Source: a virus (taxonomy: Duplodnaviria > Heunggongvirae > Uroviricota > Caudoviricetes). Taken from it: 10,363 bases of DNA. The stretch spans positions 1 to 10,363 of IMG/VR virus record IMGVR_UViG_2654587726_000019; one strand, written 5' to 3'. Positions 1,891 through 8,780 of this stretch are shown piece by piece (the first letter of the stretch is position 1; every line of letters begins with the position of its first letter). The position numbers were made by a program, and so were the translations under genes. Under the pieces are notes generated by a model that was not told the DNA's origin, ran no database searches, and was given only the letters and a program-made list of their open reading frames with translations.

Positions 1891-2250
1891 ATGAGCACAC
1901 AATCCCATCCTTTAAATCTGCACTGGCAACCGGCCCTGAAACGCGACGGCGAGTACGTCTGTGGGCTGGAGGATATCAGCCAGGCCGTTCACATCATTCT
2001 GCGCACGCCGCGCGGTAGCGATCCCCATCGCCCCTTTTTCGGTAGCGACCTGTGGCGCTATATCGACTGGCCTGCTGAACGGGCGATTCCCCATGTGGTG
2101 CGTGAGTCGGTGGAGGCTATCCGCCACTGGGAGCCGCGCTGCAAATTTCTCAAAGTGGTGCCGGAACTGGACGGCGAACATCTCACGCTGCGCATCCAGT
2201 GGCGCGCCGCCGATGGCGTTATTAATGAAACGGAGGTGGTATGGCGTTAG
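1891..2250 (+). CDS. Baseplate wedge protein, GPW/gp25 family
   Basis: 119-aa ORF containing LEDISQ-x-x-x-I-ILRTP-x-GS ... FGS-x-L ... WEPR, matching the conserved pattern of P2 gpW / T4 gp25-like proteins. Its stop overlaps the next gene's start. Confidence 0.7.
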   Translation: MSTQSHPLNLHWQPALKRDGEYVCGLEDISQAVHIILRTPRGSDPHRPFFGSDLWRYIDWPAERAIPHVVRESVEAIRHWEPRCKFLKVVPELDGEHLTLRIQWRAADGVINETEVVWR

Positions 2251-3356
2251 CTGAACCCGATTTTATCGACCGCGACCCGGCGCAAATCACCAGTGAGATG
2301 ATTGCGCAGTATGAAGCGGTGAGCGGTAAAACGCTCTATCCGGCGCAGGCGGAGCGGCTGCTGATTGATGTTATTGCCTATCGTGAAAATCTGCTGCGCA
2401 TCGGCATTCAGGAGGCGGCAAAGCAGAATCTGGTGGCGTTTTCCCGTGCGCCAATGCTCGATTACCTCGGCGAACTGGTGGGCGTGAAGCGCCTGCCTGC
2501 GCAGGCGGCACAGACCACGTTGCGGTTTTCCGTTGCCAGCGCGCAAAAGCGCAATGTGCTGATCCCGGAGGGCACCCGCGCCAGCGCGGCCAACAGCGTG
2601 ATGTTTGCCACCGATGACGATGTGCTGCTGCCAGCCGGAAGTCTGAGCGTCGATGTCACGGCCACATGTACCACCGCTGGCGTTGTGGGTAATGGCTGGC
2701 AACCGGCGCAGATTAGCGCACTGGTGGACAGCGTGGCAGGTGTCGATTTGCAGGTGACGAACATTACCGCGTCCGGCGGCGGCTGCGCCGATGAAAGCGA
2801 CGACGCCCTGCGCGAGCGTATCCGGCTGGCTCCTGAAAGTTTCAGTAACGCGGGGAGTTATGGCGCATACCGCTTTCATGCGCTGTCAGTCAGCCAGGCG
2901 ATTATCGACGTGGCCATCCTCGGCCCGGATGAGGGGCTGGATGAAGGTTGCGTGGAGATTTACCCGCTGACGCAGGACGGTCTGCCGGGCGATGAGTTGC
3001 TGGCACAGGTGGTGCAGGATGTCAGTAAAGAGAAGAAACGCCCGTTGACCGATAAGGTAAGCGCGAAGAAACCACTGCGCGTGGCATATCAGATTAACGC
3101 GCAACTCACGCTATTCACTAAAGCCGATCAGGACTCGACGCTGCTGGCCGCGCGTAAGGCCATCGCCGACTGGACGGCAGAGCGCGAGCGCCATCTGGGG
3201 CGGGATATCGTCCCCAATCAAATCATCAAAGTGTTGCAGGTGGCGGGTGTCTATGACGTGGCGCTGGAAACACCTGCCAAACGAGTGCTCGCGGCACATG
3301 AGTGGGCGCAGTGTACCTCGATTGATGTGACCATCGCCGGGGTGAGCGATGGATAA
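2241..3356 (+). CDS. Baseplate J-like protein
   Basis: 371-aa ORF; ATG overlaps the end of the W-like gene with GGAGG upstream. Size and position (after W, before I-like and fiber) match the gpJ / Mu gp47 family. Assigned by family-level recall, not by alignment. Confidence 0.65.
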   Translation: MALAEPDFIDRDPAQITSEMIAQYEAVSGKTLYPAQAERLLIDVIAYRENLLRIGIQEAAKQNLVAFSRAPMLDYLGELVGVKRLPAQAAQTTLRFSVASAQKRNVLIPEGTRASAANSVMFATDDDVLLPAGSLSVDVTATCTTAGVVGNGWQPAQISALVDSVAGVDLQVTNITASGGGCADESDDALRERIRLAPESFSNAGSYGAYRFHALSVSQAIIDVAILGPDEGLDEGCVEIYPLTQDGLPGDELLAQVVQDVSKEKKRPLTDKVSAKKPLRVAYQINAQLTLFTKADQDSTLLAARKAIADWTAERERHLGRDIVPNQIIKVLQVAGVYDVALETPAKRVLAAHEWAQCTSIDVTIAGVSDG

Positions 3357-4068
3357 GTTACCGCTTCAACCGCCGCTCGCCGGGGATGAACGCTTTACCC
3401 GGCTGGCAAATCTTGCCGCTGAACGCTTCGCACAACTCGATCTGACCGCGCTTCTGATTTACCTGGTGGATCTGGTGGATGCCACGGCGCTGCCGTCGCT
3501 GGCAGAACAGTTCCACGTTCAGGGGCTGGAAGGCTGGCTGTTTGCCCGCGATGAGCGACAAAAGCGCGATCTGATCAAGCAGGCCATTGAGCTGCACCGC
3601 TATCGCGGTACGCCGTGGGCAGTGCGTCAGGTACTGAAGATTCTGGCGTTGGACGGCGATATCAGCGAGTGGTTTGAGTATGGCGGTAAGCCGTACTTTT
3701 TCCGCATGGATGTCACGCTTGAGACGCGCGGGCTGACTGAGGATGAATTTAACGCGCTGATTGTGCTGATCCATGAGTACAAGAACGTCCGCTCAAAGCT
3801 GGAGATGCTGACTATCTGGCTGATTAACCAGAGCCAGATCCCGGTTATCGCCAGTGCTGTTCAGGGCGGCGAGATTGCTACCGTTCTGCCGTGGATTGCG
3901 GAGAGCGTGAGTCAGTCGTCTGCGGTTTATCTGGCGACGGAGTGTTTGAGTGCAGAGGTGGTAACGGTGTTGCCTCCGCTGCATGGCAATGTTGAGCAGA
4001 CCAGCGTTATGAGTGTTGGAGCGGGCTGCTGGAGTATTGAGTTTGTCACTGTTTACCCGGAGGAGTAA
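3349..4068 (+). CDS. Phage tail protein I-like (baseplate wedge, fiber attachment)
   Basis: 239-aa ORF whose start overlaps the J-like stop (ATGGATAA). It sits directly upstream of the tail fiber gene, as gpI / Mu gp48 does. Acidic, Leu-rich N-terminus is typical of the family. Confidence 0.6.
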   Translation: MDKLPLQPPLAGDERFTRLANLAAERFAQLDLTALLIYLVDLVDATALPSLAEQFHVQGLEGWLFARDERQKRDLIKQAIELHRYRGTPWAVRQVLKILALDGDISEWFEYGGKPYFFRMDVTLETRGLTEDEFNALIVLIHEYKNVRSKLEMLTIWLINQSQIPVIASAVQGGEIATVLPWIAESVSQSSAVYLATECLSAEVVTVLPPLHGNVEQTSVMSVGAGCWSIEFVTVYPEE

Positions 4069-5768
4069 TGGCGAGTGAATTTTTTACCATTTTAACCGCC
4101 GCTGGCCGCGCGAAGATTGCTGCGGCGCTGGCGGAACAAAAGCAGATAGTGCTGCAAACAATGGTCGTTGGCGACGGCGGCGGGCAGTATGCCGAACCGA
4201 AAGAGAGCCAGACAAAGGTGGTGCGTGAAGTCTGGCGCGGGTCACTGAATACGCTGAAAATCGCCCCGGAAAACCCGGCGTGGGTGATTGCCGAGGCGGT
4301 ACTGCCGGAAGCGAAAGGCGGCTGGTATATCCGCGAGGTGGGATCGCTGGATATGGACGGCGTGCTGATTGCCATCGGCAAGTTCCCGGAAACCTATAAG
4401 CCGAAGCTGCCTGCCGGGGCCAGTAAGCAAATTGTGATCCGCGCTGTGATGGAAGTGACGAACGCGGCGGCGGTAACGCTGATGGTTGATCCGTCGCTGG
4501 TGATGGCAACGGTAGATTATGTGGACTCCAGTATTGAAGAGCACGAAAGATCACATAATCACCCGGACGCAACGCTGACTCAGAAAGGCTTTACGCAGCT
4601 TAACAGCTCCACCAATAGCACGCTGGAAACGCAGGCAGCAACGCCGAAGGCGGTGAAGGCGGCGATGGATAAGGCGAATGAGGCACTGGAAAAAGCTGGG
4701 GCTGATAAAGCGCATAAACATCCGTGGGCCGATATTACCGGGGTGCCGGATGGGACAACGGCGCAGAAAGGGGTTGTGAAGCTTAATAGCTCAACGAACA
4801 GTACCAGTACGACGGAGGCTGCGACACCGAGTGCGGTTAAGGCGGCATATGACCTGGCGAATGGTAAGGCGGCGGGGAGCCATAAACATGCCTGGGGCGA
4901 TATTACCGGGGTACCGGATGGCACTACGGCGCAAAAAGGGATCGTAAAGCTCAACAGCGCGACGAACAGCACCAGTACTACCGAAGCGGCCACGCCCGGC
5001 GCAGTGAAGGCGGCGTATGACCTGGCGAACGGGAAAGCGGCTTCCAGCCATACTCACGCATGGAGTCAGATTACCGGCGTACCGGATGCAACTACAGCGC
5101 AAAAAGGGGTTGTGAAGCTTAATAGCGCGACGAACAGTACCAGTACGACTGAAGCCGCAACGCCGAGCGCGGTTAAGGCGGCGTATGACAAGGCGAATAC
5201 AGCAATCTCCAGTTTTGCTCTTTTCACGTCGAATGGGACGTTTACGGTGCCAGTCGGGGTAACGAAAGTGATGGTGGAAATGATTGGAGGTGGAGGTGGT
5301 GGCGGCGGCGGTGGTGTGGGTGGTGGTGAGCGAATTGGTTATCCGACAGCAGGTAAACCATCACTTTTTGTTCAAGGGATTGTTGCTGTGAACTCTGGAC
5401 AAAATGTAACCGTCACAGTCGGCGGAGGCGGTGTTGGGGGATCATCAAAAGTAGATACTGGTGGTGGTTCGATGACCGGGAGTAATGGGTACGCCGGAGG
5501 AAACTCAATTTTCTTAACGCTCACTTCTGTTGGTGGTAGCGGCGGCGGCGGTGCATTGCCAGATTCTGGTCCTGGCAACGCATTAAATGAGCCAGGTTCT
5601 GATTCAACGCATGGCTATGGCGGGGGGACTAAGTATAACTCGCAGAAAAATGCCGTAGGTTATGGTTCGAGTGGTGCGGCTGGTACCTCTAAAGGCGTCA
5701 GAACTGTTGAAGGGGACTCTACAGCAGGTGGCAATGGTGCTTCAGGTTTTGTCAGAATATGGTGGTAA
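4068..5768 (+). CDS. Tail fiber protein (P2 gpH / Mu S-like N-terminal domain, tandem fiber repeats, Gly-rich C-terminal tip)
   Basis: 566-aa ORF with GGAGG upstream; ATG overlaps the preceding TAA by 1 nt. N-terminal ~160 aa match the conserved gpH N-terminal pattern (VGDGGG, EVWR, SYKP-like, VMAT-x-DYVD-x-x-I-x-EHE-x-S). This is followed by four tandem ~56-aa repeats and a glycine-rich C-terminus. Confidence 0.85.
   Translation: MASEFFTILTAAGRAKIAAALAEQKQIVLQTMVVGDGGGQYAEPKESQTKVVREVWRGSLNTLKIAPENPAWVIAEAVLPEAKGGWYIREVGSLDMDGVLIAIGKFPETYKPKLPAGASKQIVIRAVMEVTNAAAVTLMVDPSLVMATVDYVDSSIEEHERSHNHPDATLTQKGFTQLNSSTNSTLETQAATPKAVKAAMDKANEALEKAGADKAHKHPWADITGVPDGTTAQKGVVKLNSSTNSTSTTEAATPSAVKAAYDLANGKAAGSHKHAWGDITGVPDGTTAQKGIVKLNSATNSTSTTEAATPGAVKAAYDLANGKAASSHTHAWSQITGVPDATTAQKGVVKLNSATNSTSTTEAATPSAVKAAYDKANTAISSFALFTSNGTFTVPVGVTKVMVEMIGGGGGGGGGGVGGGERIGYPTAGKPSLFVQGIVAVNSGQNVTVTVGGGGVGGSSKVDTGGGSMTGSNGYAGGNSIFLTLTSVGGSGGGGALPDSGPGNALNEPGSDSTHGYGGGTKYNSQKNAVGYGSSGAAGTSKGVRTVEGDSTAGGNGASGFVRIWW
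4554..5205 (+). repeat. Four tandem in-frame repeats (periods 159, 168, 168 bp) encoding phage tail-fiber repeat units
   Basis: Repeat units start at 4554, 4713, 4881 and 5049. Each encodes H-x-H-x-W-x-x-ITGVPD-x-TTAQKG-x-VKLNS-x-TNST ... EAATP-x-AVKAAYD. The last three copies are nearly identical at the protein level. Confidence 0.85.
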
Positions 5769-5771
5769 CAC

Positions 5772-6374
5772 ATGAAATATGCGTATTTTGAACCCTCATC
5801 AATGAAGGTTTTAGACTGGCTGGATACCGAACAATTATCCTTTGTTTTGCCTGACAGTGTTGTTTCGGTAACTGATGAGCAATGGTGTTATCGTGATCGT
5901 GAATGCTGGGTCAATATTTCAACCACAGAAATCATCACAACACCTCCACCCGGTGATTTTTATCGGCTTGATGGTGATAAGTGGGTGTATGACGCAACCA
6001 GCTATACTGCTGCGCTAGACGGTGCTAAGTCACTAGTTGTTAAGGCAATCAAGGCGCTACGCGATGAAGTCACTGCCGATTATATCATTATCGGCGACTA
6101 TCACTTTCACAGCGATGCCAGCAGTCGTATCCAGCAAATGTCACTCACCAGGATGGGGCAAACGAAGCAAATCCCCAAAGGCTTAATGTGGCAGACCAAA
6201 AACCTCGGACTTCTCGAGCTAACCAATGAAATCGCGGCGCAGTTTGAGTCCATTACAATGGATCACGATATGCGCCTCTTTGCCAATGCCCAGCGACATA
6301 TTGCCGCCGTTGAGGCGCTGGAAGATATCCTGGCAGTTCAGGAGTATGACTACTCTACGGGGTGGCAACCATGA
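5772..6374 (+). CDS. Putative tail-fiber-associated protein (assembly chaperone candidate; family not recognised)
   Basis: 200-aa ORF starting 4 nt after the fiber stop. It shares the fiber tip's low GC content. Its position is that of a Tfa/gpG-type chaperone, but the sequence does not match the classical Tfa pattern as I recall it. Confidence 0.4.
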   Translation: MKYAYFEPSSMKVLDWLDTEQLSFVLPDSVVSVTDEQWCYRDRECWVNISTTEIITTPPPGDFYRLDGDKWVYDATSYTAALDGAKSLVVKAIKALRDEVTADYIIIGDYHFHSDASSRIQQMSLTRMGQTKQIPKGLMWQTKNLGLLELTNEIAAQFESITMDHDMRLFANAQRHIAAVEALEDILAVQEYDYSTGWQP

Positions 6375-6823
6375 GGCCGGTGTATCTGGCGTTCTATAAA
6401 GGGCGAGCCGATCATCATGGGTTCGCACGTCTTTCCGACTGGCTGACGCGGCTGGTGACGCGGGGTGAGTATTCTCACTGCGAGCTGGCTGTTGACCAGG
6501 GTAACGGCGAGTTTCTTTGTTATTCGTCGTCGGTGCGTGACAAGGGGGTGCGCTGTAAGCAAATGCCGCTGCCACTCGATAAATGGGATCTTATCGCGCT
6601 AAATGCGCTACCAACCAGTGTGGAGCAGTTCTTCCGTCGAAACGACGCCATGAAATATGACTGGCTGGGGGCTGTGGGATTCGTTGTTTTTAATCGTGGA
6701 CGGGAGAACAAATATTTCTGTAGCGAGTTTTGCGCAGATTTTCTTGGACTGGTCGATAGCTGGCGTTATTCACCCAATATGCTCCACGCGCTGGCCAGCA
6801 GTATTCAGACTATGAAGTTATAA
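6371..6823 (+). CDS. Hypothetical Cys/His-rich protein (moron); function unknown
   Basis: 150-aa ORF; ATG at 6371 overlaps the upstream TGA (ATGA), with an alternative GTG at 6362. GC-rich, with a coding-like codon pattern. Contains GEYSHCEL and YFCSEFCADF motifs. No confident family assignment. Confidence 0.5.
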   Translation: MRPVYLAFYKGRADHHGFARLSDWLTRLVTRGEYSHCELAVDQGNGEFLCYSSSVRDKGVRCKQMPLPLDKWDLIALNALPTSVEQFFRRNDAMKYDWLGAVGFVVFNRGRENKYFCSEFCADFLGLVDSWRYSPNMLHALASSIQTMKL

Positions 6824-6836
6824 GGGAAACAGCGAC

Positions 6837-6862
6837 CAGAGTCAGGCGGTCACCTGACTCTG
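6837..6862 (+). promoter_or_regulatory. Perfect 10-bp-stem hairpin (CAGAGTCAGG-cggtca-CCTGACTCTG) just downstream of the moron ORF
   Basis: The inverted repeat is read directly from the sequence. There is no U-tract after it, so it is not a canonical intrinsic terminator; it could be an RNA stability or attenuation element. Confidence 0.4.
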
Positions 6863-6907
6863 ACCAGCTAACCCGCAGGAAGTGTCTGCGAGCCGCCCAG
6901 GGCTGCC

Positions 6908-6923
6908 ACTGATGGCCATCAGT
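6908..6923. promoter_or_regulatory. Perfect 16-bp palindrome ACTGATGGCCATCAGT upstream of the methylase gene (candidate operator)
   Basis: Exact dyad symmetry read from the sequence, ~47 bp upstream of the methylase ATG. Any regulatory role is inferred. Confidence 0.35.
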
Positions 6924-6969
6924 CCAATAAGCCTAACAGTTTTTCACATACTGAAAAAGGTTTGCAGAA

Positions 6970-7743
6970 ATGAAAACATTACCCATTATTCCGTGGCCCG
7001 GCGGTAAGCGTCGTCTGGCCAAAAAGTTATTACCGTTATTTCCTGAGCACCAGTGTTATGTAGAGCCATTCTGCGGCGGTGCAGCCTTGTATTTCATGAA
7101 GGAGCCGGTTGAAGCTGAAGTCCTGAACGATATCAACGGCGAACTGGTGAATCTGTACCGTGTGGTTAAAAATCATCTTGAAGAGTTTGTGCGCCAGTTC
7201 AAGTGGGCGTTGAGCAGCAGGCAGATTTTTGAATGGTCGAAAATGACCATCCCGGAGACGCTAACTGATATTCAGCGTGCAGCGCGGTTTTATTATCTCC
7301 AGAAGCAATCATTCGGAGGGAAAGTGGAATCACAGACGTATGGAACGGCGACCACTTCTGCACCACGGCTTAATCTGCTAAGGCTGGAAGAGGAGTTGAG
7401 CGCCGCCCATTTGCGGCTATCACGCACGTTTGTAGAACATTTACCGTGGCGTACCTGCATTGAGAAGTATGATCGCCCGCACACACTGTTCTATTGCGAT
7501 CCCCCGTATTGGGGAACGGAGGGCTACGGTGTTGAATTTGGACTGGAGCAGTACACCCAACTTGCAGAGTTGGCCAGAACGATAAAAGGCAGGATGTTGA
7601 TCAGTGTGAACGATATCCCGGAGATGCGTGAAACCTTTGCGGACTTGTCGATTGATACGGTAGATATTCGCTATACGTTGAGCGGTGGGCCTAATGCTAA
7701 TCGCTCGAAAGTCAGCCGTGAGCTGGTCATTCGTAACTGGTAA
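6970..7743 (+). CDS. Dam-family (D12 class) N6-adenine DNA methyltransferase, orphan
   Basis: 257-aa ORF with the N-terminal pattern WPGGK ... EPFCGGAA (AdoMet-binding FxGxG-type motif), DINGELVNLY, and the catalytic DPPY motif (FYCDPPYW). This is the architecture of E. coli Dam / T4 Dam-like methylases. No endonuclease gene is recognisable beside it. Confidence 0.8.
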   Translation: MKTLPIIPWPGGKRRLAKKLLPLFPEHQCYVEPFCGGAALYFMKEPVEAEVLNDINGELVNLYRVVKNHLEEFVRQFKWALSSRQIFEWSKMTIPETLTDIQRAARFYYLQKQSFGGKVESQTYGTATTSAPRLNLLRLEEELSAAHLRLSRTFVEHLPWRTCIEKYDRPHTLFYCDPPYWGTEGYGVEFGLEQYTQLAELARTIKGRMLISVNDIPEMRETFADLSIDTVDIRYTLSGGPNANRSKVSRELVIRNW

Positions 7744-7850
7744 AGTGGAATTCTTTTGCAATAGGTGAAAAAAGTCGCAGCGCGATTTATCTCGCAGATT
7801 CAGGCGAATTTATCGCGCGCGGCTTTAGCACCGGAGCGACCGGTTATTAC

Positions 7851-8780
7851 GTGCTAATTCTGTCGCTGGTATCCACCATTCCGTACAGTAAAAAGCTACC
7901 AACATCGAAATTAATGATGCCCCTGGGATTTGCCACCAACCACCCGCTTCTTCCTATCAATCTCGCGCTTCTCTTTGGCGTTACGGCGACCGTACTCGAA
8001 ACCGCGGGGTTTCATCAGGAGATTTCGATGGGGCGCTTTGCGCTGGTGAATCTCATCATGTCAGCGGCTTTCCTCGCATGGAGTCTTATTGCCTACCGTT
8101 TTCTTCCGGATCATCCCATTGCGGATGCTTCCGAGGATGCGCTGGCGGCACGCGAGGAAACGTTTAACGCCCTTCCTGCCTGGAAAGAATATTGCACTAT
8201 TGCCGCATTCGCTGTCAGCGTTATCGGCATGATGCTAATGAACATTCTGGGAAATATCGCCTTCGTTATTCCGGGTCTTGCGGGTGCGTTTGTTCTGATG
8301 ATCGATGTACTGGACTTCAAAGAAGTTCGCGATCATATGGGGGCTCCGGTCATTTTAATGATGGCGGGGGTGATCGGTGTAGCTGATGCACTGGCGGGCA
8401 CCGGCTTTACGGCGATGGTTGGCGATGCCGTTGCAGGTGTGCTCGGTTCTGGCGTCTCACCGTTTGTATTTATTGTCGCCTTTGCTTTGCTTACCAGTAC
8501 CTGCGCCACCTTCACGGGTTCGAATATGGGGTCAGTATATATTTTTGCCCCCATCGCCATTGCCGCCTGTACTAGCCTTGGGCTTAACCCGACCGCTGCC
8601 GCGATTGCGGTGGTGATTTCTGGCTGGAATGGCGGCTATATGCCTATTGACGGAATGCCAGCCATGATCCTCGGAATGGGGAAATACAAACTTCCCGAAT
8701 TCTGGGTGTTCTCTGTACCAATGTATCTCATCCGCATTCTGGCGCTTTGTGCAGGCGCTGTTTTTATCTTCCCAATGTAA
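7851..8780 (+). CDS. Integral membrane permease (ion-transporter-superfamily-like), possibly a 5'-truncated gene
   Basis: Strongly hydrophobic ORF with multiple predicted membrane-spanning segments and Gly/Ala-rich re-entrant-loop-like motifs (TFTGSNMG, NGGYMPIDG). The track start is a GTG at 7851 with a poor RBS. An in-frame ATG at 8028 has a strong AGGAG 6 nt upstream. The frame stays open upstream to 7737 with no good start codon. Confidence 0.5.
   Translation: MLILSLVSTIPYSKKLPTSKLMMPLGFATNHPLLPINLALLFGVTATVLETAGFHQEISMGRFALVNLIMSAAFLAWSLIAYRFLPDHPIADASEDALAAREETFNALPAWKEYCTIAAFAVSVIGMMLMNILGNIAFVIPGLAGAFVLMIDVLDFKEVRDHMGAPVILMMAGVIGVADALAGTGFTAMVGDAVAGVLGSGVSPFVFIVAFALLTSTCATFTGSNMGSVYIFAPIAIAACTSLGLNPTAAAIAVVISGWNGGYMPIDGMPAMILGMGKYKLPEFWVFSVPMYLIRILALCAGAVFIFPM

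Follow-up and report, generated by a model that had tools for sequence, protein, structure and literature searches.

What kind of receptor-binding tip does the tail fibre at this locus carry, and with which neighbours would it be exchanged between prophages? The window (the whole stretch of DNA analysed, 10,363 nucleotides) contains a 566-aa ORF that the initial annotation had read as a fibre in three parts: an anchor, a set of repeats and a glycine-rich C-terminus. The length of the ORF was exactly as given there, and the three-part layout is borne out by Pfam matches to PF12571, PF03406 and PF21722 (Table 1). The protein is an ordinary, already annotated tail fibre of E. coli prophages; an identical NCBI entry, 'tail fiber protein [Escherichia coli]', is present in 49 contigs. 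The best explanation, which we consider highly probable, is a side tail fibre of a Mu-like or P2-like contractile-tailed E. coli prophage. This confidence is a joint one and covers the fibre class, the fold of the head, the chaperone and the cassette exchange together.

Table 1. Features of the fibre locus, in window positions
Feature	Position	Strand	Evidence
Baseplate wedge genes upstream: gpJ-like (2241-3356) and gpI-like (3349-4068)	2241..4068	+	Pfam
Tail fibre gene, 566 aa	4068..5768	+	ORF list; Pfam and PHROG tail-fibre matches
N-terminal baseplate-attachment (anchor) domain, aa 1-149	4068..4514	+	PF12571 Phage_tail_fib
Fibre repeat 1, diverged copy, aa 155-210	4530..4697	+	PF03406, best stretch aa 169-210
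Three tandem 56-aa/168-bp repeats: R2 4713-4880, R3 4881-5048, R4 5049-5216	4713..5216	+	TRF, pairwise identity
Block differing from closest related prophage L001: repeat end, glycine-rich head, first 58 chaperone codons	5021..5946	+	blastn
C-terminal TNF-like beta-sandwich and glycine-rich domain, aa 383-566, PF21722; predicted distal receptor-binding head	5214..5765	+	
Run of ten glycine codons, G407-G416, mixed GGA/GGT/GGC	5286..5315	+	sequence; pLDDT about 96
Longest variable head segment, aa 496-525, candidate specificity loop	5553..5642	+	low pLDDT, indels among relatives
DUF4376 tail-fibre-assembly (Mu Tfa/U-type) chaperone, 200 aa	5772..6374	+	PF14301 aa 86-194, E 1.4e-9; PHROG tail families
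Conserved 153-aa ORF	6362..6823	+	phrog_1128, E 3.6e-58

The conserved N-terminal attachment domain proposed earlier turned out to be an anchor of the P2 gpH/pyocin type. PF12571 matched it with an E-value of 2.4e-55 over profile positions 1-149 of 150, and an anchor role has been described for this domain (PMC7882524). Over the first 160 aa, the fibre is 97% identical to that of L001 and 66% identical to those of two further prophages (L002 and L003). Residues 25-400 share 49% identity with a P2 tail fibre protein, which we take to be gpH. The two genes upstream encode a gpJ-like protein (PF04865 Baseplate_J, E 3.5e-65) and a gpI-like protein (PF09684 Tail_P2_I, E 6.2e-34). The gene order PF04865, PF09684, fibre, PF14301 runs through tightly packed or overlapping ORFs, and the fibre start codon (ATG) and the stop codon of the gpI-like gene overlap. 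Both the domain content and the gene order are those of a side tail fibre of the P2 gpH/Mu S type. A promoter and terminator scan of positions 3300-7900 gave nothing above chance, with neither a promoter-like site nor a convincing terminator between the J, I, fibre and chaperone genes, and no invertible segment or invertase gene was found at the locus in the ORF list and Pfam matches. Most likely, the PF12571 domain plugs a fibre trimer into the gpJ/gpI baseplate wedge. We found the same fibre architecture again in prophages of E. coli and Salmonella; a whole-protein search recovered it in Salmonella phage S.Kent 1-2-1.

PF03406 (Phage_fiber_2) matched four stretches of the fibre (E 4.8e-68), which would form its shaft. 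The initial annotation had described four near-identical repeats of about 56 aa. There are indeed four repeats, but only three of them are tandem and similar to each other. Repeat 1 shares about half of its residues with repeats 2-4 (46-52% identity), is spaced 61 aa instead of 56 aa upstream of repeat 2, and matches residues 109-192 of the Mu fibre protein S (5yvq). Tandem Repeats Finder reported a period of 168 bp with 2.9 copies and an 80% match at 4713-5198. Repeats 2-4 are pairwise 77-89% identical in amino acids but only 73-80% identical in nucleotides, and their longest common exact DNA stretch is 15-24 nt. Because of these values and the divergence of repeat 1, the repeat DNA is less suited to homologous recombination than had been implied when expansion and contraction of the 168-bp unit were proposed. 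The copy number nevertheless differs among relatives, ranging from 0 to 4 in the 18 loci that we compared.

PF21722 (Gly_rich_2) matched aa 387-557 of the C-terminal part with an E-value of 1.2e-6 and 29.1 bits, a small margin over the cut-off of 24.3. All of the glycine runs reported before are present (G407-G416 followed by VGGG, GGGGVGG at 452-458, GGSGGGG at 489-495 and GYGGG at 516-520). A region with 30% glycine (aa 386-566) and a run of ten could be a low-complexity, disordered stretch without a defined fold, be it a flexible spacer or an artefact of assembly. Many database copies of the fibre are cut off at aa 395-409, where the ten-glycine run begins or shortly ahead of it, and a tblastn search with aa 382-566 gave no match in 50,697 phage records, a result that divergence and the low-complexity filter probably explain. 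However, structure prediction, which had been suggested with the initial annotation, yielded a folded and not a disordered C-terminus: the model of the last 191 aa reached a pLDDT of 84.8 and a pTM of 0.81, with eight short strands, the last of which (FVRIW) occupies aa 561-565 of 566, and with high confidence even in the ten-glycine run. This model has strong matches to solved structures, and the beta-strands and glycine motifs are kept in register among relatives. A single-sequence search with the head returned only 7 matches, probably an effect of poly-Gly words filling up the list of candidates, and a profile search was needed; it revealed a very large family with about 39,000 cluster representatives at E<=1e-10. 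An artefact is also at odds with the identical full-length copies in two IMG/VR contigs and 49 other contigs. On the confident model, the structure matches, the Pfam membership and the conservation in register, we rejected a disordered linker, which we regard as scarcely conceivable.

The folded glycine-rich region is, as had been proposed, terminal and not an internal linker. It forms the C-terminus in all six related fibres (those of L001, L002, L003, L011 and L014 included), and the domain is also C-terminal in most single-domain members of the PF21722-type family. In the model, which is that of a monomer, the glycine-rich segments are neither helix nor strand according to DSSP and have pLDDT values of 92-98; this is compatible with a polyglycine-II geometry, albeit no proof of it. 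The last ~184 residues of each chain would fold as a small TNF-like beta-sandwich, from which glycine-rich strands would pack into a polyglycine-II lattice. An alignment of four enterobacterial heads fits the earlier observation of glycine motifs separated by short variable segments, in that motifs and strands are invariant, and what lies between them differs in sequence and, through insertions and deletions, in length. The largest of these fall in the segment at aa 496-525, and model confidence is lowest there as well (pLDDT <50 at aa 506-521 and about 66 at aa 496-505). The conserved glycine motifs may serve as a rigid scaffold. The intervening non-glycine segments probably form distal loops that contact the receptor. 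The head diverges faster than the anchor, since the window and L001 fibres are 45% identical in the head, compared with 97% over the first 160 aa. From this divergence and by analogy with the fibre protein gp24 of cyanophage Pam3 and with Klebsiella phage SCNJ1-Y, we infer that the head binds a host receptor. [quoted passage not shown]

The head belongs to the Pam3/ALK class of TNF-like plus glycine-rich domains and not to the gp38 class. Profile positions 10-203 of 204 of a six-member family profile aligned with chain residues 86-273 of Pam3 gp24 (7yfw/7ypx) at E 7.5e-6, a modest value for a sequence of biased composition. The predicted fold is also that of the gp24 head, in which ordered glycine-rich segments pack against a small beta-sandwich. 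The glycine-rich Pfam family of ALK/LTK, presumably PF12810, was absent from the head matches at E<=10. In Pam3 gp24, the scaffold of glycine motifs is conserved and the distal tip is variable (PMC9608196).

The initial annotation was right in placing a glycine-rich, adhesin-type tip on a P2/Mu-type fibre, but it had likened this tip to the gp38 adhesins of T2/S16, in which a beta-helix carries a three-layer polyglycine sandwich. Conserved glycine motifs framing hypervariable segments are common to both, a functional resemblance and not a sign of membership. The gp38 Pfam family (GP38) matched neither the whole fibre at E<=0.1 nor the head at E<=10, and the gp38 adhesin (PDB 6F45) was not among the fold matches listed. 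The head as modelled shows neither the beta-helix or solenoid nor the ten-helix polyglycine sandwich of 6F45; the PPII helices of gp38 are preceded by beta-solenoid turns. [quoted passage not shown] The only small proteins encoded downstream are the DUF4376 chaperone and the unrelated 153-aa ORF. We therefore rejected gp38 as the model for this tip, and a gp38-type adhesin fused to the fibre end is very unlikely.

The Pam3/ALK-type head is followed, 4 nt past the fibre stop codon, by the DUF4376 gene. In Mu Tfa, DUF4376 forms the conserved C-terminal part (PMC7882524). The AF2 model of the chaperone (pLDDT 93.7) shows a beta-rich N-domain and a helical C-domain. Its beta-rich half (aa 1-73) is variable and its C-terminal half conserved: among the six chaperones compared, the last 110 aa are 76-93% identical, and the N-terminal part shares 17-26% identity between tip types and 34-52% within the glycine-rich type. 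In a census of 18 loci, all eight with a glycine-rich tip encode a 200-208-aa chaperone that starts with M-x-KY(A/V)Y (in L001 and L020 after a four-residue extension), and all ten with a collar/His-rich tip encode a 232-246-aa chaperone with a different N-terminus, although the loci are related to each other and do not represent independent events. The variable N-domain is likely matched to the head, and the conserved C-domain presumably drives the assembly of the trimer. Pam3 gp24 depends on a chaperone of the Mu-Tfa kind, which binds the head domains through its N-terminal beta-sandwich (PMC9608196). A comparison of the chaperone with the structures of Pam3 gp25 and Mu Tfa found no similarity in fold or sequence, and NCBIfam gave no useful match for any of the three proteins (fibre, chaperone and 153-aa ORF product). 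A C-terminal intramolecular chaperone that is cleaved off was rejected, as there is no such Pfam domain and a separate chaperone gene is present.

It is conceivable that the DUF4376 protein is retained on the fibre as the real receptor binder or as a co-receptor binder, with an N-domain that varies by host contact and a head whose role is chiefly structural, as a cap or a docking platform. The chaperones of Mu and Ur-lambda occur in mature phages (PMC9608196), and TfaMu is said to stay bound to the Mu fibre (PMC7882524). PMC10579305 pairs Alteromonas phage fibres with a cognate chaperone, speaks of 'transient chaperone caps' and annotates these chaperones as DUF4376. The N-domain is, in addition, the most variable part of the chaperone. 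However, the head diverges at least as fast (41-45% versus 34-52% identity), and mass spectrometry of the Pam3 virion found gp24 and not the chaperone (PMC9608196). We consider a receptor-binding chaperone improbable and retain the head as the likely receptor-binding part.

The head and the chaperone N-domain also differ together between prophages. In a blastn comparison with L001, identity is 91.5% up to position 5021 and 85% from 5946, and between them there is only a 73% out-of-register match that reaches to 5315. GC content in this block is 0.46-0.53, compared with 0.55-0.63 upstream. In this one close pair, the left joint lies in the PF03406 shaft repeats and the right joint in the chaperone gene, within its variable N-terminal stretch and ahead of the DUF4376 domain. 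The head and this N-domain would swap between prophages as one cassette of ~0.9 kb, thereby changing the host range. A further reading is that the ~180-aa ALK-like glycine-lattice head and the DUF4376 chaperone N-domain form one self-contained, co-transferred specificity cassette, with three independent heads per fibre in place of a single trimeric tip shared by the chains, and the 153-aa ORF as a possible third partner; this reading is tentative and rather doubtful. If true, the whole cassette could be transplanted into P2-type phages or R-type tailocins for retargeting. The 153-aa ORF overlaps the chaperone gene by 13 nt and directly follows it in 18 of 18 related loci. It had no Pfam match at E<=10 and no NCBIfam or PDB match; a permuted papain-like His/Cys pair in it is a guess.

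These results connect many E. coli and Salmonella prophage entries named 'tail fiber protein' with a structurally solved class of receptor-binding heads (Pam3 gp24, Bxb1 gp33, ALK-like). They also give practical boundaries for tip swaps, in that the head begins directly after the last shaft repeat and has to be transferred along with the initial ~60-90 codons of the gene that follows. This should be of use for host-range prediction and for phage and tailocin engineering; no new mechanism is revealed.

Among known systems, the P2 gpH and Mu S fibres with their Tfa proteins (gpG and U) share with this locus the PF12571 anchor and PF03406 repeats, the gene order J-I-fibre-Tfa and the mosaic exchange of the distal part. 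Sister prophages (L004, L005, L021-L027) have N-termini that are 74-86% identical, but end in a His-rich tip (...NYIVRLA) where the window fibre has its glycine-rich head; their chaperone is longer, and PF02413 is found in the database homologues of chaperones of this class. Pam3 gp24 with its chaperone gp25 (PDB 7yfw, 7ypx; PMC9608196) is a solved example of the same head module. It is, however, a minimal fibre of 280 residues with only an alpha-helical shaft before the head, whereas the window fibre has the anchor and four repeats, and the Pam3 domain contains 39% glycine and 12 glycine motifs, compared with 30% and longer non-glycine inserts here. The module is also seen in gp33 ('tail wing brush') of mycobacteriophage Bxb1, with gp29 (PDB 9d93), although in the tail tip of a siphovirus with a Gram-positive-type host and in another protein context. 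Finally, the extracellular TNF-like plus glycine-rich (TG) domain of ALK/LTK (PDB 7lir, 7lrz, 7nx1) is a related ligand-binding domain, found in metazoan receptor kinases that bind peptide activators; its lattice is larger in human ALK and LTK, with fourteen helices, than in C. elegans ALK, with ten.

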